Source: Deltaproteobacteria bacterium
GTDB lineage: Bacteria; Desulfobacterota; GWC2-55-46; JAUVFY01
Direction: 5' to 3'
Assembly: GCA_030594025.1 (NCBI GenBank)
Contig: JAUVFY010000001.1
Location: forward strand, 1 to 31,834
DNA length: 31,834 nucleotides
The translations under genes and the position numbers were made by a program. The number at the start of each line of letters is the position of its first letter. Within the stretch, counting starts at the first letter, position 1. Positions 23,217 through 30,083 of the stretch are shown here, in pieces. The notes under the pieces were generated by a model, which had not been told where the DNA came from, did not search any database, and saw only the letters and a list, made by a program, of their open reading frames with translations.

Positions 23217-24326
23217 GTGAAGGACACACACGGCGGGGATATCTGGCAGGCTTCGACCCTCACGGGTATACCACCCGGCGATATAATAGACTTCAGCGCA
23301 AACATAAACCCCCTCGGCCCTTCACCCATGGCCACCGAGGCGCTGAAAGAGGCCCTCGGGATGGTCGGGGCCTATCCGGAGCCCGGGGCAGGCGCCCTCA
23401 AGGAGGCCCTTTCAGACTACCACCACATACACCCGGACCGGATACTTCCCGCAAACGGCTCCACCGAGCTTATATACCTCATACCAAGGGTCCTCGCCCC
23501 GAAGACAGCGCTGGTCGTTGAGCCCGCATTCAGCGAGTACGTAAACTCGCTCGTGCCCCTGGGGTGCAGGGTCGATGAGTTTTTAACCGGAGAAGAGGAC
23601 TCATTTGCGCTCGATACGGAAAGGCTCGCTACGAAGCTTAAAAACGGCTATGACGTTTTTTACCTGGCCAACCCCTCGAACCCCGCAGGCTCGCTCGTCG
23701 ATAAAGAGCCCCTCTTACATCTCGCTCGAAAATGCCGTGAGCACGGGACGGTCCTTGTAGTGGACGAGGCATTTGCGGATTTTACGGAAGGGCAGTCGAT
23801 AAAAAAGGAGGCAGCAGAACTAGGCAGTATAGTTGTGTTGAGGTCCATGACCAAGTTCTTCTCCCTGGCCGGCTTGAGGCTCGGCTACATGGTGGCAAGT
23901 GAGGGACTGATAAAGAGGTTTACAGAGCACATCCAGCCATGGGCTGTAAACACACTCGCAATGGTCGCAGGCGAAGCAACACTCAGGGACATGGCTTACA
24001 TGGAGAGGACACTTCGCTGGTTCGGGGAGGAAAAAAAACGCACCGCGGCCGAACTCGCCGCAATCCCCGCCCTTAAGCTCTTCCCGTCGAAAGCGAATTT
24101 TTTCCTCCTCAAGCTCCTTACGGACGCTTTTACAGGTGCGTTGCTTAAAAAAGTCCTTCTTGAAAGAGGGATACTCATAAGGGAGCTGAGCTCAGTAAGG
24201 GGGCTCGGTAAAAGGTTCTTCCGGGTGGCGCTACTTAAAAGGAGGGATAACGAGACCTTAGTCGAGACCCTCAGGTCTTTGCTTCTGGGCATGAAAAGCC
24301 TTGACAGAGCCGACATTTCATGTTAA
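23217..24326 (+). CDS. cobD: L-threonine-O-3-phosphate decarboxylase (PLP, class I/II aminotransferase fold)
   Basis: HGG start, DFSANINPLG, ANGSTELIY, NPSNPAG, VVDEAFADF, RSMTKFFSLAGLRLGY (PLP Lys). cobQ and cbiB are nearby. Confidence 0.88.
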   Translation: MKDTHGGDIWQASTLTGIPPGDIIDFSANINPLGPSPMATEALKEALGMVGAYPEPGAGALKEALSDYHHIHPDRILPANGSTELIYLIPRVLAPKTALVVEPAFSEYVNSLVPLGCRVDEFLTGEEDSFALDTERLATKLKNGYDVFYLANPSNPAGSLVDKEPLLHLARKCREHGTVLVVDEAFADFTEGQSIKKEAAELGSIVVLRSMTKFFSLAGLRLGYMVASEGLIKRFTEHIQPWAVNTLAMVAGEATLRDMAYMERTLRWFGEEKKRTAAELAAIPALKLFPSKANFFLLKLLTDAFTGALLKKVLLERGILIRELSSVRGLGKRFFRVALLKRRDNETLVETLRSLLLGMKSLDRADISC

Positions 24327-24417
24327 TAAGATATTGAAGTATTAGGCGTTTTTATTCAGATGAGGTTTTTACCCGCTGGCAAGGTAGCTTAATACGGAAA
24401 AAAAATTTAATATAAGA

Positions 24418-24515
24418 ACCACCGATAGTGGCAACCCACTCCGGAAGGATGGGACGCAAAGCCATTGACCCGACCCGGATTAGATGCGGAGGGTTTGATT
24501 GGATGCCGAAGTGGT
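24418..24515 (+). ncRNA. c-di-GMP-I (GEMM) riboswitch
   Basis: GGCAA-CC...CC-GGAA-GG...GGGACGCAAAGCC core, 3' GGATGCCGAA, and P1 ACCAC/GTGGT. G at 24430 is the G20-equivalent, so c-di-GMP rather than cGAMP type. Confidence 0.88.
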
Positions 24516-24526
24516 AAGAATAAGAC

Positions 24527-24562
24527 AACCCATCATAGGCTTTGCGGATGATGGGTTTTTTT
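24527..24562 (+). terminator. Intrinsic terminator (riboswitch expression platform)
   Basis: AACCCATCAT/ATGATGGGTT perfect 10-bp stem followed by a T run. Confidence 0.9.
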
Positions 24563-24595: not shown

Positions 24596-24624
24596 TTGAC
24601 AAAATAGATACCACGTGATATAAA
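24596..24624 (+). promoter_or_regulatory. sigma70 promoter between the riboswitch terminator and leader 1
   Basis: TTGACA (24596-24601), 17-nt spacer, TATAAA (24619-24624), extended -10 TG. Confidence 0.7.
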
Positions 24625-24627
24625 TCC

Positions 24628-24705
24628 GCTGTTTCAAGAAAAACAGCTTGTTATCACGCCGGGTGATGAAGCCCTAAGGCACATGTTTAGCCTTGGGGCT
24701 TTTTT
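24628..24705 (+). promoter_or_regulatory. Attenuator-like leader 1: two hexaloop hairpins plus an overlapping intrinsic terminator (ANTAR-target-like)
   Basis: GCTGTTT-CAAGAA-AAACAGC, GGGT-GATGAA-GCCC, and a 12-bp terminator stem 24669-24680/24690-24701 with a T run. Confidence 0.6.
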
Positions 24706-24881
24706 ATTTCAAGGATGTTTATAAAATAAACGGACTCCTGCGATTATGCGAAGGTAGCTGACGGCCCACATATAGAGGTGGTAAAATGAAAATCACCGCG
24801 GTCGTAGCGTTGCTTTCATTCGTTCCTCGAACACTTTCTAACCGCCCCTTTCCAGGGGGCCGAGGTAGAGGACTGCGCCCC

Positions 24882-25337
24882 GTGCATGGTAAAAAGCAGA
24901 GTTTTATATGGGGCTTGGTTCTTTTATTGTTCTTTTTCTTCCATTCATATGCATATGCCCAGGACTTCATCGTGGTCGTAAACAAGGACGGCCCCCTGAA
25001 CGATGCCAACATGGATGTAATAAAGAAGATATATCTCGGGGAGAAGAAGTTCGTGGACTCAACAAAGATCATGCCCATACATTTAAAAGAGGGCCCTGCC
25101 AAGGACGCCTTCCTCAAAACCGTTGTCGGTATGAGCTCAAAGGAATACAAGCATTACAGTCTACAGAAGCTCTTCCAGGAAGGGTTGCAATTCCACTCGA
25201 TAGCAATCCCCGTGGAAATCGTTGAGTTTGTGAGTAAAGAGAAAGGGGCGGTGGCCTATCTGCCGGCCTTCTGGACCACGGCCATTCAATCCGGGATCGG
25301 AAGAGGCACGGAGGAGATTAAGATTATTGGTCCCTGA
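24882..25337 (+). CDS. Small secreted periplasmic-binding-protein-like protein, copy 1 (often labelled 'phosphate ABC substrate-binding')
   Basis: Signal peptide ending AYA/QD, IVVVN..GPL, IYLGEK, EFVSKEKGAVAYLP. GTG 24882 has AGAGGA upstream. The frame also extends to ATG 24786. Confidence 0.75.
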   Translation: MHGKKQSFIWGLVLLLFFFFHSYAYAQDFIVVVNKDGPLNDANMDVIKKIYLGEKKFVDSTKIMPIHLKEGPAKDAFLKTVVGMSSKEYKHYSLQKLFQEGLQFHSIAIPVEIVEFVSKEKGAVAYLPAFWTTAIQSGIGRGTEEIKIIGP

Positions 25338-25438
25338 GGGCCGCGACACGGGCGAAGGGCTTTGGCCCGCGCGTTAGAGGAAGTTTGACGAACCCCCTCT
25401 CGATGGGCTTTCCCCTGCATTCTCTTCCATAAGCCTCC

Positions 25439-25467
25439 TTGACACCTTGCTTTTTCCGTGGTAGAAG
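25439..25467 (+). promoter_or_regulatory. Putative promoter of the porin operon
   Basis: TTGACA (25439-25444), 17-nt spacer, TAGAAG, extended TG. The -10 is weak. Confidence 0.4.
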
Positions 25468-25487
25468 TAGTAGAAGTAATAGAACTA
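25461..25487 (+). repeat. Three tandem 9-mers GTAGAAGTA GTAGAAGTA ATAGAACTA over the -10/start site
   Basis: Read directly from the sequence. Confidence 0.8.
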
Positions 25488-25516
25488 TTTGAAGATTTTT
25501 TAGGTAAGAAGATAAA

Positions 25517-25596
25517 ATGCTGTATGGGTATGCTCCTTTATGCAGCATAAGGTGAAGGTGCCTCAAGGCTGCGTTCTGCTCCTGGGGCATTTTTTT
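25517..25596 (+). promoter_or_regulatory. Attenuator-like leader 2, homologous to leader 1
   Basis: ATGCTGTAT...ATGCAGCAT hairpin, AGGT-GAAGGT-GCCT, and terminator TGCCTCAAGG/CCTGGGGCA followed by T7. Confidence 0.6.
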
Positions 25597-25665: not shown

Positions 25666-26931
25666 ATGAAAATCGCAAGGGTAGTTTTTTTGGTCTTCTT
25701 TTTCTTCCTCTTCACGGTGGTCCCGGACTCAGGGGCGGACGAGCTCTCGGACCTTAAAAAGGCGGTCGAGGAGCAGGAAAGAGAGCTTCAAGAGTTAAGG
25801 AAGAAGGTCGAAGAGCTGGAGAAGAAACGCCTTGAGGAAGAAGATGCTGAGAAGAAGATGGATGTAAGGGAACATGAAGAGCTCAAAAAAAAGGTCGAAG
25901 AGCTCGAGGAGAGAAGACGGCTCGAGGGGGAGGCGGCCAAGGAGATGAAGGAATTACTTCCCAAGTTCGGCGTGAACCTGGGCCTTTTCGGGGACATAAA
26001 TTATTCTTCTGAAAGCAGGGAGAAGAGAGTTGACACCTTTTCCCTGGGCAATGCAGCACTTTACTCTACCGCTGGCTACGGTGAGCGTTTGAACTTCCTC
26101 GCTGAGTTATTAATTGAGTTCGAGGAAGATAACGACGTGGAAGTCGACATGGAGAGGCTCTGGGCGGGCTACACAATAAACGATTTACTGATCATTCGCG
26201 CGGGCAAGTTCCACACGCCAGTAGGCTACTGGAACAAGACCTTCCATCACGGAAAACACCTCTTTCACACGGTGGAAAGGCCGTTTTTTATTAAATTCGA
26301 AGACGATGAAGGCATAGTTCCGGTACATTTAATAGGGCTTGAGTTCTCAGGGAGCGCCGACATCGGGCCGGCGAAGGCCAAATACTGGCTCATGGTGGGA
26401 AATGAACCTGTAATAGAGAACGGCAAGCTTAAGCCGAGCAATACAACCGACGACGACTCCTCCAAGGCGCTTGCTTTCAGGGTCGCGTTGAGCCCGAAGA
26501 GGCTGCCGGGTCTGTCCGTGGGCCTCTTTTTTACGCATTTCCCCGTGGAGACCACCCTCAAGCCCGGGCTCGACGAAAACATCTACGGGCTGGACGTGCA
26601 CTATGAGAGGGCCGGGCTGGAGTTCTTAGGCGAGTACTACTTCTTCGACAACAGCGTGGCCTCTGCAAACGCGTTCTACGCCCAGCTGTCTAAAGACTTA
26701 GGTCGATTTACACCGTATACGAGGTTCGAATGGCTCGACGTGGATAGTGACGACCCCTACATGAGCGACCTTAACGGCGCTTTCGACAGGTCGCAGTTCA
26801 TAGGCGGTTTGAGGTTCGATATAGATCTCCTGCACTCGAGCCTCAAGGCCCAGTACCGTCACGACGACGATAGAGGCCCTGCAGACGATGACTTCGACAT
26901 CTTCGAGGCCCAGTGGACATTTCATTTTTAA
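25666..26931 (+). CDS. Putative outer-membrane beta-barrel (porin) with an N-terminal coiled coil
   Basis: Signal peptide, charged heptad repeats, amphipathic strands, RAGKFHTPVGYWNKTFHHG, and a C-terminal aromatic beta-signal EAQWTFHF. GAGGT RBS before ATG 25666. Confidence 0.85.
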   Translation: MKIARVVFLVFFFFLFTVVPDSGADELSDLKKAVEEQERELQELRKKVEELEKKRLEEEDAEKKMDVREHEELKKKVEELEERRRLEGEAAKEMKELLPKFGVNLGLFGDINYSSESREKRVDTFSLGNAALYSTAGYGERLNFLAELLIEFEEDNDVEVDMERLWAGYTINDLLIIRAGKFHTPVGYWNKTFHHGKHLFHTVERPFFIKFEDDEGIVPVHLIGLEFSGSADIGPAKAKYWLMVGNEPVIENGKLKPSNTTDDDSSKALAFRVALSPKRLPGLSVGLFFTHFPVETTLKPGLDENIYGLDVHYERAGLEFLGEYYFFDNSVASANAFYAQLSKDLGRFTPYTRFEWLDVDSDDPYMSDLNGAFDRSQFIGGLRFDIDLLHSSLKAQYRHDDDRGPADDDFDIFEAQWTFHF

Positions 26932-26944
26932 ACTGGAGAATCTG

Positions 26945-27388
26945 ATGAGGCTTTTTCTTATTTTATTCTTCCTTTTTCTCCAGCCCTATGCATATGGAGC
27001 GGAAAAAGAAGGCCTAATCGTGATAGTAAACGAGAAAGGGCCTCTGACAGAGGCCAGCATGGAAGAAGTACGGGATGTCTATCTCGGTGAGAAGAGGTTT
27101 GTCGAAGGTACGAGGCTCCTGCCCGTTAACTTTACCGAGGGACCGCTAAAAGACCTTTTCCTTAAGAAGATCGTGGGTATGAGCTCGAAGGAATATAAGC
27201 ACCACTGGATTAGGAAGGTCTTCCAGGAGGGGCTCACCATCCCCACCACAATGGGGAGCCCCATTGCTATCATAGAGTTTGTTGTTAAGGAGAAAGGTGC
27301 GGTGGCCTATCTACCGGCTTCATGGGCAGAGGCCATCCTGTCCGGGATCGCAGATGTCACAGATAAGATTAAGATTATAGGGCCATGA
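26945..27388 (+). CDS. Small secreted periplasmic-binding-protein-like protein, copy 2
   Basis: GGAG RBS, signal peptide, and about 55-60% identity to copy 1 by hand alignment. Both end IKIIGP. Confidence 0.8.
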   Translation: MRLFLILFFLFLQPYAYGAEKEGLIVIVNEKGPLTEASMEEVRDVYLGEKRFVEGTRLLPVNFTEGPLKDLFLKKIVGMSSKEYKHHWIRKVFQEGLTIPTTMGSPIAIIEFVVKEKGAVAYLPASWAEAILSGIADVTDKIKIIGP

Positions 27389-28977
27389 AATTAAAGACAG
27401 GTATAAAAAGGAAGATTCTGGGCTCTTTCTTGGGCACCTTTATTGTATGGACGGTCATCATCTCCACGTTCATATTCTGGTCGTACTTTGTCATAGGGGG
27501 TCTCATCGGTACGGTGGGTGTGATGGACACCATCTCCCAGCAGGCGGAGGTAACGGGCGAGCTGAGGTTACAGCTTCAAAAGCTTCTTAAGACCTCCGGC
27601 GATTACCTTATAACAGGGGACATAGAAAAGAGGGACGAATTCGACACCATAGTCACGAGGATATCTATCCTTTTAAGCGCGCTTGAGGAGCTAACGAAAG
27701 AAGTGGAACAGGTCGTCGAAGAGCGGCGATACCCGCTTCAAAAAATCAGGGACGGGTCCATGAAATTAAGCTCCATGACAGTTGAGCTGATGTATCTCGA
27801 CGACCCGGTGGGCAACATTGAGGCTGCAAGGCTCATGGAGGAGGCCACGGCCTTCGGTGAAAGGGTTATAGTCGATGCCGAGGAGTTCCACAGCATAGCC
27901 GAAGTGGATAGAATTTTGATGATCGAGGAAACATCTCTTAGCATCTCCCGGACAAAGACCTTTCTTTACATACTCCCCCCGCTGGGGCTCTTTGCATTCA
28001 TCATGCTCTATCTTTACCTGCGGTATTACATAACAAATCCCCTTACCGAGTTTTACAAGGGTGCGGACAGGGTAGCAAAGGGGGACTTCGACCACTCCGT
28101 GGATGTAAAGACCGGGGACGAACTGGAGGGCCTGGCAGACGGGTTCAACAGGATGGCCTCGGCACTTAAGGAAAGGGAGGCGAAGCTTCTGAGTCTTCTC
28201 AAGGTGGCGGACAAGATTAACGAAGAGCTTATAGCCGCAAGCCAGCACAAGTCCTCCTTCCTCGCGAACATAAGCCATGAGCTCAAGACCCCCTTAACCC
28301 ATATATTGGGTTTTTCGGAACTCTTGAAGATGGAGGCGGGGGGCAAGCTCCCGGATACATACCGCAGGTACGCGGACTACATCTATAAGAGCGGAAAAGA
28401 CCTTTTGGAACTTATAAACTCAATGCTCGAGGTAACGCGCGCCTCCGGTGTTGCCGAACCCGAGTTGAAGAAGTTCCCTGTGAACAAGGCCATCGACGAA
28501 GTGGTGAAAAAGATAGGTTCCGATGCCGACAAGAAAAAGCTGGACTTTAAGGTGGAGGTCGACAAAGAACTGGGTCTTTTAAAGGCCGATAGAAATATGT
28601 TCAGCCAGATCCTCACGAGCCTGCTTTCCAACGCCATCAAGTTCACGCCCAAAGGAGGCTCCGTAAGGCTCGTGGTGTCGCAGACGGTTGAAGTCGAGGA
28701 GAGGGTCCTGAAGATGGTCGTCGAGGACACGGGCATAGGGATAAGACCGGAGGACAAGGAGACCGTCTTCGAATCCTTCGAGGTCGGGGACCTGACCCCT
28801 ACCAGGGAGTTCGGTGGACTCGGCATAGGGCTCGCCCTTACAAAGAGGTTCGTGGAGTTCCACGGCGGAAAGATAACCATCGAGAGCGAGTTGGGCAAGG
28901 GCTCCACCTTCGTTGTGCTCTTGCCCATAGGTAGAGTAGAGCCCGTAGGCCATGAGGAGGCTGAGAGTGAAAAATGA
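27385..28977 (+). CDS. Membrane sensor histidine kinase (periplasmic helical domain, HAMP, HisKA, HATPase)
   Basis: Two TM helices, HAMP (GDELEGLADGFNRM), H-box FLANISHELKTPL, N-box LLSNAIKFT, DTGIGI and GLGIGL G-boxes. Confidence 0.96.
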   Translation: MKLKTGIKRKILGSFLGTFIVWTVIISTFIFWSYFVIGGLIGTVGVMDTISQQAEVTGELRLQLQKLLKTSGDYLITGDIEKRDEFDTIVTRISILLSALEELTKEVEQVVEERRYPLQKIRDGSMKLSSMTVELMYLDDPVGNIEAARLMEEATAFGERVIVDAEEFHSIAEVDRILMIEETSLSISRTKTFLYILPPLGLFAFIMLYLYLRYYITNPLTEFYKGADRVAKGDFDHSVDVKTGDELEGLADGFNRMASALKEREAKLLSLLKVADKINEELIAASQHKSSFLANISHELKTPLTHILGFSELLKMEAGGKLPDTYRRYADYIYKSGKDLLELINSMLEVTRASGVAEPELKKFPVNKAIDEVVKKIGSDADKKKLDFKVEVDKELGLLKADRNMFSQILTSLLSNAIKFTPKGGSVRLVVSQTVEVEERVLKMVVEDTGIGIRPEDKETVFESFEVGDLTPTREFGGLGIGLALTKRFVEFHGGKITIESELGKGSTFVVLLPIGRVEPVGHEEAESEK

Positions 28978-30083
28978 AATTACAGTCAGGGTATAGGGGT
29001 ATTTTCGCCCTGACCGTTTTAGTCTTCTTTTCCGGAGCCGCACTTTCTTACGGAATCCCCTTCAAAAAAAGACAAACGACCTTTTATGTCACCACCCTGG
29101 CCGGCACGGGTGTGAAGGGCCATGAAAACGGAAGCCCCGACAGGGCGAGCTTCAACTGGCCTACAGGGGTGGCCGTTGCCCGCGACGGTACCGTATACGT
29201 GGCCGATTTTTCAAACAACGCCATAAGGAAGATCGACCCCGGCGGCAATGTTACGACTTTTGCAGGCTCCGGAAGGCAGGGACACAAGGACGGGAAGGGT
29301 ATAGATGCGCTATTCCACGGTCCCGATAACATGGCCATAGACCCGGAGGGCAACTTATTCGTCGCCGATGCGGACAACTTTAGGATTAGAAAGGTCACCC
29401 CCGACGGGACCGTTACCACGGTAGCCGGAAACGGTTCATTGGGTTACAGGGACGGATTGGCTCACGTTGCCATGTTCGGCTACCCCACGGGCATAGCCGT
29501 GGACATTGAAGGAAACCTCTATGTGGCAGACAGGCGGACCCATACGGTAAGAAAGATAACCACCGAGGGCATGGTCATGACTATCGCTGGAAACGGCCTG
29601 GCAGGCTACGCCGACGGAAAGGGCAAGGCCTCCCACCTGAGGGAGCCCATAAGCGTTTCCGTAAAGAGTGACGGTACGGTCTATGTCGCCGATTCGGGTA
29701 ACAACGTCATAAGGGAGATAGCCCCGGACGGTACCATAACGACACTTGCCGGGTCAAAACGTCCGGGTTACAAAGACGGTACCGGAAGGGATGCGCGGTT
29801 TAACTGGCCCACCGGCATAGCCGTAGACCCCTCCGGTAACATCTATGTCTGCGATTCGAATAACAACAAGATAAGGCGCATAACGCCGCTCGGTGTCGTG
29901 AGCACAATAGCCGGCGGGACGCTGCCCGGCTCAGCCAACGGCCCCGGCTGGCGCGCGAGCTTCAAATTCCCCACGGGCATATGGCTCGACGGGAAAGGAA
30001 ACATCTATGTCGCGGACTCGGGCAACAACATGATAAGAAAGATAACACGGCAAAGCTCGCTGGAGGCCCACTTAAGGGATTAA
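28974..30083 (+). CDS. Secreted NHL-repeat six-bladed beta-propeller protein
   Basis: N-terminal hydrophobic signal and six F..P.G.AVD..G.(L/I)YVAD..N..IRKI repeats. Confidence 0.9.
   Translation: MKLQSGYRGIFALTVLVFFSGAALSYGIPFKKRQTTFYVTTLAGTGVKGHENGSPDRASFNWPTGVAVARDGTVYVADFSNNAIRKIDPGGNVTTFAGSGRQGHKDGKGIDALFHGPDNMAIDPEGNLFVADADNFRIRKVTPDGTVTTVAGNGSLGYRDGLAHVAMFGYPTGIAVDIEGNLYVADRRTHTVRKITTEGMVMTIAGNGLAGYADGKGKASHLREPISVSVKSDGTVYVADSGNNVIREIAPDGTITTLAGSKRPGYKDGTGRDARFNWPTGIAVDPSGNIYVCDSNNNKIRRITPLGVVSTIAGGTLPGSANGPGWRASFKFPTGIWLDGKGNIYVADSGNNMIRKITRQSSLEAHLRD

Follow-up and report, generated by a model that had tools for sequence, protein, structure and literature searches.

Two putative ANTAR-type attenuator leaders ahead of a porin and sensor-kinase locus in an uncultured delta-proteobacterium

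In a 31,834-nt stretch of DNA (hereafter referred to as the window; contig JAUVFY010000001.1, positions 1 to 31,834) from the assembly GCA_030594025.1 of a Deltaproteobacteria bacterium (GTDB lineage Desulfobacterota; GWC2-55-46; JAUVFY01), two related leaders were identified upstream of envelope genes. Leader 1 (24628-24705) precedes a gene for a small secreted protein (gene 4), and leader 2 (25517-25596) precedes a four-gene operon that begins with a porin-like gene. Both leaders are probably protein-dependent ANTAR-type transcription attenuators, a reading to which we assign a probability of about 0.75; as such, they are a new example of a known switch type. All coordinates refer to the whole window and its + strand, the genome comprises 1.54 Mb, and labels of the form L0xx denote stretches from relatives.

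Each leader contains two hairpins, P1 and P2, and an intrinsic terminator. P2, the proposed ANTAR-binding hexaloop hairpin, was located at 24661-24674 in leader 1 (GGGU-GAUGAA-GCCC; -6.0 kcal/mol alone) and at 25550-25563 in leader 2 (AGGU-GAAGGU-GCCU; -3.0 kcal/mol alone). In both leaders and in every relative, the terminator 5' arm starts with the 4 nt of the P2 3' arm, GCCY. The terminator of leader 1 (24671-24705; -18.9 kcal/mol) has a 10-bp stem with the arms GCCCUAAGGC and GCCUUGGGGC (24671-24699), a 9-nt loop, and a U6 tract (24700-24705). That of leader 2 (25560-25596; -18.5 kcal/mol) has a 9-bp stem with a bulge, formed by the 5' arm GCCUCAAGG and the 3' arm CCUGGGGC (25560-25588), followed by a single A and a U7 tract (25590-25596). 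P2 is far weaker than the terminator, and a stabilising factor is therefore needed. The combination of a weak P2, invariant loop letters, and an arm shared with the terminator is the signature of a protein-stabilised antiterminator. All four hexaloops of the window (CAAGAA, GAUGAA, UAUGCU, and GAAGGU) follow the pattern N-A-H-G-N-N, with G at position 4 in each.

In the proposed mechanism, a strong sigma-70 promoter would initiate each leader, and by default the 9-10-bp terminator would fold, so that transcription would end after ~75-120 nt. An active, phosphorylated REC-ANTAR regulator would bind the hexaloop hairpins, flipping out G4, and would thereby stabilise the weak 4-bp P2. As the GCCY 3' arm of P2 is also the base of the terminator, the terminator would be blocked, and transcription would continue into gene 4 (leader 1) or the operon of porin, binding-protein, histidine-kinase, and NHL genes (leader 2). 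From the features described here, we infer the binding itself, the premature termination, the paralogue that acts, and the kinase that signals to it.

Architecture and conservation of the leaders

The promoter of leader 1, read from the sequence, lies at 24596-24624 and consists of a -35 element TTGACA (24596-24601), a 17-nt spacer, and an extended -10 element TGaTATAAA (24616-24624); the predicted transcription start is at ~24631. The promoter scan overlooked it because a T was required at -10 position 6. P1 of leader 1 (24628-24647; GCUGUUU-CAAGAA-AAACAGC) folds into a 7-bp stem with the hexaloop CAAGAA (-7.6 kcal/mol) and is separated from P2 by a 13-nt linker. It is poorly conserved and starts 4 nt past the -10 hexamer, at the predicted transcription start. 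P1 may thus be incompletely transcribed from the leader's own promoter, and it would be complete in read-through transcripts from the riboswitch-like element located upstream; its role is uncertain. A competing hairpin (24651-24669; UUAUCAC-GCCGG-GUGAUGA; -7.1 kcal/mol), which sequesters the 5' arm and the loop of P2, also formed part of the minimum-energy fold of this leader. This hairpin was found in the closest relative (L049/L050) and was missing from leader 2 and from the remaining relatives. It is a candidate anti-antiterminator, which should raise the threshold for read-through in leader 1. A possible leader peptide inside P2 of leader 1 (AUG-AAG-CCC-UAA) was also considered and rejected, as it is not conserved and loop position 3 is A in leader 2.

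The promoter of leader 2 (25439-25467), likewise read from the sequence and kept in relatives, has the -35 element TTGACA (25439-25444), a 17-nt spacer, and the extended -10 element TGgTAGAAG (25459-25467). A weaker alternative promoter, TTGAAG-18-TAAAAT, was detected by the promoter scan at 25489-25518. P1 of leader 2 (25517-25548; AUGCUGUAU-GGG-UAUGCU-CCU-uu-AUGCAGCAU) is a 12-bp bulged hairpin with the apical hexaloop UAUGCU at 25529-25534 (-13.4 kcal/mol). Hairpins of this class were kept in five orthologous leaders, with the loops GACGCU, GACGCG, AACGCA, and AGCGCU. RNAalifold on the five leader 2-class P1 sequences showed that the pairing was kept, with zero double-sided changes. The loop-to-loop distance between P1 and P2 of leader 2 is 19 nt, which is similar to that of eutP (18 nt).

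Two further observations were made on P1 of leader 2. A contig from cold-seep DNA (run X1) carried G>T at 25527 and C>T at 25536, the partners of one apical-stem pair; this double change gives U-U and is non-compensatory. In another metagenomic relative (L056:401-1040), P1 of leader 2 is deleted and the porin gene is called as two pieces (117 + 269 aa); the locus is either decaying or misassembled. An alternative fold, in which the P1 3' arm pairs with the terminator loop, was considered and discarded, since it comprised 7 bp in leader 2, five weak bp in leader 1, and none in L051. Loops of the CsrA-type GGA were not conserved and were likewise discarded.

The leaders are paralogues, as their alignment extends from the promoter through the ribosome-binding site AGAGGUG to the start ATGAAAATC. 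The first-pass annotation of this DNA had described both leaders with their hairpins and their terminator overlap, and sequence reading and folds agreed with that description at the same positions; the 20-mers around P2, given there as 13/20 identical, are in fact identical at 14 of 20 positions. The predicted folds were more stable than those of shuffled sequences (z = -4.8 for leader 1 and -2.9 for leader 2).

For comparison, 12 leader copies (alignment A2) were collected from metagenomic relatives whose porin is 94%, 68%, or 62-64% identical. A scan of JGI metagenomes with the porin returned only relatives of 43-46% identity; the nearer ones came from the protein database. The promoter design TTGACA-N17-TGnTAnAAn was also found ahead of the leaders in L051, L052, L054, and L055. 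Across the 12 copies, the P2 helix was paired in all 48 of 48 cells (100%), and pairing fell to 23-63% when the partner was shifted by 1-3 columns. The outer pair was A-U in six copies, G-C in three, and G-U in three, and never A-C, and the closing pair was U-G in 11 copies and C-G in one. In the P2 loop, G1, A2, and G4 were invariant and position 3 was A or U; variation was seen in the terminator loop and in parts of the terminator stem. A cross-loop pair between G1 and N6, which would turn the hexaloop into a tetraloop, is possible at only ~60% of the sites and is thus not conserved.

A covariance model built from the 12 copies of the relatives, a check that the first-pass annotation had proposed, gave scores of 63.6 and 62.4 bits for the window copies, far above the next match in the genome (26.6 bits). 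The word RGGTGAWGRNGCCYNAAGGC was present in the genome only in the two window copies.

ANTAR regulators and related sites in the genome and the order

As the first-pass annotation had noted, no ANTAR gene is encoded in the window; the listing of ANTAR proteins that it had suggested revealed two such genes elsewhere in the genome, one on C188 (PF03861, 73.2 bits) and one on contig C235 (36.3 bits). C188 encodes a 191-aa REC-ANTAR protein, whereas the gene on C235 (2-85) is truncated by the contig end to its last 28 codons, with a radical-SAM gene after it. Rv1626/PdtaR (E = 1.6e-45) and EutV (E = 4.6e-34) both aligned with the entire C188 protein. In the crystal structure of EutV with RNA, G4 is the sole base-specific contact and stacks on Tyr164, and A1 is uncontacted (Walshe et al. 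2022, PMC8934654). For EutV, one hexaloop is sufficient as a minimal site, and its Met172 alanine mutant cannot bind RNA (PMC8934654). The C188 protein retains the G4-stacking aromatic residue (Tyr replaced by Phe), Met172, and Lys143.

ANTAR genes were found in 77 of the 77 genomes of the order, mostly two in each. They comprise paralogue A, which is GnfR-like and 43-65% identical to the C188 protein, and paralogue B, which is 35-43% identical to it. The C235 fragment clearly belongs to paralogue B. In paralogue B (C235 and the relatives L096-L107), Gln occupies the position of EutV Met172, and QKENKK replaces MNKRAR.

In Geobacter sulfurreducens, the site CAGGCAANGGCGCC is bound by phosphorylated GnfR (Ueki and Lovley 2010, PMC2995071). 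It overlaps terminators before nifH, nifEN, and the hypothetical-glnK-amtB operon, and gnfK and gnfR are unlinked (PMC2995071). A site of this type, AGGC-AAAGGG-GCCU, was identified on the minus strand of C188 (~1680-1738 in + coordinates; L198), where it overlaps a terminator whose stem spans 12 positions with 11 pairs and one mismatch. The gene order at C188 is REC-ANTAR, glutamine amidotransferase, the site, a secreted 223-aa protein, PII (glnK), and an amtB-like gene, which is a Geobacter-like layout. In at least 25 genomes of the order, AGGC-AAMGGC-GCCU with a terminator was found 1-4 kb downstream of paralogue A, usually together with a textbook P1 such as GGUUAC-AAAGAA-GUAACC. The position of GnfR-type sites beside a GnfR-like regulator indicates that ANTAR antitermination is probably active in this lineage.

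Sites resembling those of the window were also found elsewhere: both the covariance model and a pattern search recovered the P2 word with a terminator after it in many genomes of the order. In the order, RGGYGAHGNNGCCY followed by a T-run was found 57 times, compared with 14 times for the reversed control. At several sites, hairpins of like design lie 11-14 nt before P2 (GGCU-GACGAA-GGCC, AGCU-GACGAC-GGCU, and AGCU-AAUGAC-GGCU), and at some sites none was present. The genes after such sites mostly encode exported proteins, including multihaem cytochromes, beta-propeller lipoproteins, and a DUF7948/SBBP protein. The L071 site, before a gene for a PocR-GAF-GGDEF cyclase, misses the hexaloop pattern, and its orthologues are of the A1 type. 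A third copy in the genome (C256:1485-1533, minus strand; L061), consisting of AGGU-GAAGAU-GCCU and a terminator, lies 25 nt ahead of a gene for a 472-aa beta-propeller lipoprotein with Lactonase, YNCE, and NHL hits, and the orthologous lipoprotein gene in G002:C12 is preceded by the same element. A scan of the whole GTDB for the exact pattern gave 30 matches, which is near chance, about ten of them in metagenome-assembled genomes labelled 'Deltaproteobacteria'; this exact flavour is thus not widespread.

The two paralogues may tentatively be assigned separate RNA codes, with A reading GGC-AAMGGC-GCC and B reading GGU-GAHGNN-GCC, the latter including the window leaders. Loop position 1 and the closing pair would then insulate the two circuits. 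In a hand tally, the ratio of U-G to C-G closing pairs was ~28:14 for G1 loops and ~14:62 for A1 loops, and the separation was sharper among sites with convincing terminators. GnfR-type sites were found only beside paralogue A and were missing from the 12 genomes that carry paralogue B only; some G-class sites were present in B-only genomes, though weak. This distribution of site classes and paralogues suggests, with low confidence, that the window leaders are targets of paralogue B and that loop position 1 and the closing pair discriminate. Under the two-code hypothesis, paralogue A sites (C-G closing, A1) would precede nitrogen-regulated genes and paralogue B sites (U-G closing, G1) would precede envelope genes, and the orphan histidine kinase of the porin operon may feed paralogue B. 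Because the EutV structure offers one base-specific contact only, it leaves paralogue specificity open; if the two-code hypothesis is true, this lineage would provide a natural system for the study of how cross-talk between paralogous ANTAR regulators is avoided.

Comparison with known ANTAR targets and rival explanations

The consensus of the published ANTAR alignment is RRGY-AAHGDV-GCYY for P2 and SYAC-AAHGRH-GUDB for P1 (Ramesh et al. 2012, PMC3369931). P2 matched the former at 13 of 14 positions in leader 1 and at 12 of 14 in leader 2. Loops with G1 and closing pairs of U-G occur in the published alignment, and P2 of eutA from Listeria monocytogenes is AAGC-GAUGAA-GCUU (PMC3369931). Since G1 loops are published and A1 is uncontacted in the EutV structure, A at position 1 is frequent and not absolute. 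The non-canonical features of the window leaders lie within published variation and form a consistent local flavour. The ANTAR layout proposed by the first-pass annotation is thus supported by the invariant-G4 hexaloop over the terminator, the consensus fit, the REC-ANTAR genes, and the similar sites in the order. Its suggestion of a new variant is weakened, as G1 and U-G are indeed present but both already occur in the published alignment.

Several observations weigh against the ANTAR assignment. The window P2s depart systematically from the consensus in having G at loop position 1 instead of the usual A, and the P1 hairpins miss the published P1 consensus, their loops beginning with C or U and also not with A. 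P1 of leader 1 is kept only in the 94%-identical relative (L049/L050). P1 loops of the leader 2 class retain G4 but have G-C closing pairs, and the end of the P1 stem of leader 2 is 1 nt from P2, compared with linkers of 5-12 nt in the eut leaders of Enterococcus faecalis. The covariation evidence for P2 is modest: the alternation of the outer pair between A-U, G-C, and G-U, of which the first-pass annotation had seen one instance, holds among the 12 copies, but the signal comes from this one pair only, and 51 of 500 shuffles equalled the observed score. In none of the relatives was an ANTAR gene found beside the porin operon or its kinase. The leader is missing from the short upstream regions of more distant orthologous operons (45-51% identity), which points to a recent acquisition in this family. 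When the genome was scanned for NAHGNN hexaloops of any kind ahead of a terminator, 24 sites were obtained, compared with 13-29 for shifted-loop controls, and there was thus no enrichment; such a generic definition does not discriminate. Finally, none of the RNA runs contains the stretch, and three metatranscriptomes of the same study yielded no contigs; this is not evidence of silence.

It is improbable that P2 is read by some other factor, either an RNA-binding protein of another kind or a small ligand acting on a mini-riboswitch, with a merely convergent likeness to ANTAR targets. Such a factor would be in accordance with the G1 loop and the U-G closing pair, which differ systematically from GnfR-type sites of the same lineage, and with the lack of an ANTAR gene linked to the operon. 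It would also be in accordance with the Rfam 15 search, in which no family reached its gathering score over the window; the leaders gave chance-level matches only (DUF3800-I, 24.1 bits against 44.2; trpB, 19.8 bits against 59). However, the design copies an ANTAR target in its loop size, the letters A2-H3-G4, the GGY/GCC stem, the terminator overlap, and the upstream hairpin at 11-14 nt. A 14-nt hairpin is, moreover, too small for the known ligand-binding aptamers, and neither CAT_RBD nor HutP was found in the genome. The two leaders might instead be unregulated, that is, plain terminators or genes for small RNAs of ~75 nt that were duplicated with their neighbours; expression of the downstream genes would then be due to leaky read-through or other promoters. 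In support of this view, a promoter and a strong terminator are present in each unit, and the units are paralogous through the start codon, as is consistent with duplication. Between the terminators and the start codons, however, only a weak promoter match was found (24758-24787), and it overlaps the ribosome-binding site and the start codon. Plain terminators would also leave unexplained why the G-A-W-G loop of a weak 4-bp hairpin is invariant in 12 copies in which the terminator loop and stem vary, and why the same word recurs before terminators upstream of genes for unrelated secreted proteins in further families of the order. We therefore regard the absence of regulation as unlikely.

A DNA-level explanation concerns P1, which could be an inverted-repeat operator placed over the transcription start and bound by a repressor, instead of or besides an RNA mechanism. 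The repeat GCTGTTT-N6-AAACAGC of leader 1 starts 4 nt after the -10 hexamer, the leader 2-type P1 of L055 also starts at the predicted start, and the word GCTGT...ACAGC is common to both leaders. In contrast, P1 of window leader 2 and that of L052 lie 40-50 nt downstream of the best promoter, and the pairing of leader 2-class P1 is kept despite sequence change (L051, L054) with a conserved apical RYGC, which fits RNA better. An operator of this kind seems very unlikely.

Under the preferred reading as ANTAR-type attenuators, the closest known systems include EutV/EutW and GnfK/GnfR. EutV/EutW of Enterococcus faecalis and Listeria, acting on eutP, eutG, eutS, and eutA (PMC3369931, PMC8934654), involves a REC-ANTAR response regulator, as proposed here, and likewise two G4 hexaloop hairpins, the weak second of which shares its 3' arm with the terminator base; the P2 loop of L. 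monocytogenes eutA, GAUGAA, is identical to that of leader 1. The window leaders differ in loop position 1 (G in P2, C or U in P1), in the U-G closing pair, and in the off-consensus P1. They also differ in their setting, since the Eut system serves ethanolamine use, whereas the window holds a porin and sensor-kinase operon with regulator and kinase genes unlinked to the targets. GnfK/GnfR of G. sulfurreducens (PMC2995071) is likewise delta-proteobacterial and shares the GGY/GCC stem, the 6-nt loop, G4, the terminator overlap, and an unlinked kinase and regulator; the window genome and the order carry this exact site type beside the GnfR-like paralogue. The window sites themselves, GGU-GAWGNN-GCC, differ from GGC-AANGGC-GCC, precede genes for envelope proteins and not nitrogen genes, and may belong to the divergent second ANTAR paralogue.

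NasR-nasF of Klebsiella and AmiR-amiE of Pseudomonas also have a G4 hexaloop hairpin that overlaps a terminator and show protein-dependent antitermination, but they differ in the sensor domains of the regulators (NIT, or control by AmiC) and in the target genes. As for the actinobacterial RNAs of PdtaR/Rv1626 (Mehta et al. 2021, PMC8164766), the window may fit their dual-hexaloop definition (stems of at least 3 bp, linker of 2-25 nt, one loop deviation), and Rv1626 is the protein to which the C188 regulator is most similar. Most of those RNAs overlap ribosome-binding sites and exert their effect on translation; in the window, P2 instead overlaps a terminator that lies well upstream of the ribosome-binding site.

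If correct, the assignment would extend ANTAR antitermination to an uncultured delta-proteobacterial lineage of sediments and cold seeps. It would also add a new type of regulon, comprising porins, small periplasmic binding-like proteins, a sensor kinase, beta-propeller lipoproteins, and multihaem cytochromes, to the known ANTAR regulons for nitrogen and ethanolamine. One envelope-sensing locus would then be under stacked RNA control, by a c-di-GMP riboswitch-like element followed by two ANTAR-type attenuators.

Layout of the locus

Upstream of the leaders, genes for ADP-forming acyl-CoA synthetase and an aminotransferase extend up to 24326 on the + strand. Promoter and leader 1 together occupy 24596-24705 and are followed by gene 4 (24786-25337), the first gene under leader 1, which encodes a small secreted protein without a Pfam match. 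Promoter and leader 2 occupy 25439-25596, and the leader 2 operon (25666-30083) contains four genes on the + strand. These encode a porin-like protein with an N-terminal coiled coil (25666-26931), one homologue of which carries PF07396 Porin_O_P, gene 6, a small secreted protein without a Pfam match (26948-27388), a HAMP-HisKA-HATPase histidine kinase (27385-28977), and an NHL beta-propeller protein (28974-30083). The gene order of the porin operon was kept in the relatives L049-L055.

Gene 4 and gene 6 are paralogues with 57% identity. In the relatives, one copy of the gene 4/6 type is always found between the porin gene and the kinase gene; gene 4 is an additional copy upstream, accompanied by a duplicated leader. 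Two start codons are possible for gene 4, ATG at 24786 (ribosome-binding site GAGGUGG) or an internal GTG at 24883, and the former would put a 40-residue extension ahead of the signal peptide.

The stretch was present in DNA runs from cold-seep and marine-sediment metagenomes, and the lineage is uncultured. At permissive E-values, the sole meaningful near-hit to Rfam was a c-di-GMP-I-like aptamer at 24420-24510 (+ strand), supported by its fold (RF01051, 34.3 bits against a gathering score of 35; E = 1.4e-4). The aptamer is followed by a terminator of its own (24523-24562), immediately ahead of the leader 1 promoter, and a promoter, TTGACA-N17-TAATAA, was noted at 24301-24329, across the end of the aminotransferase gene. 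As the module was detected in the 94% relative (L049/L050) but not in L054 and L055 (62-63%), it is a separable unit, stacked ahead of leader 1. Upstream of the aptamer, the 94% relative (L049:2644-2760) carries a 21-nt tandem duplication, GGCAAGGTAGCTTAATACAGAT / GGCAAGGTAGCATAATACAGAA, which is present as a single copy in the window.

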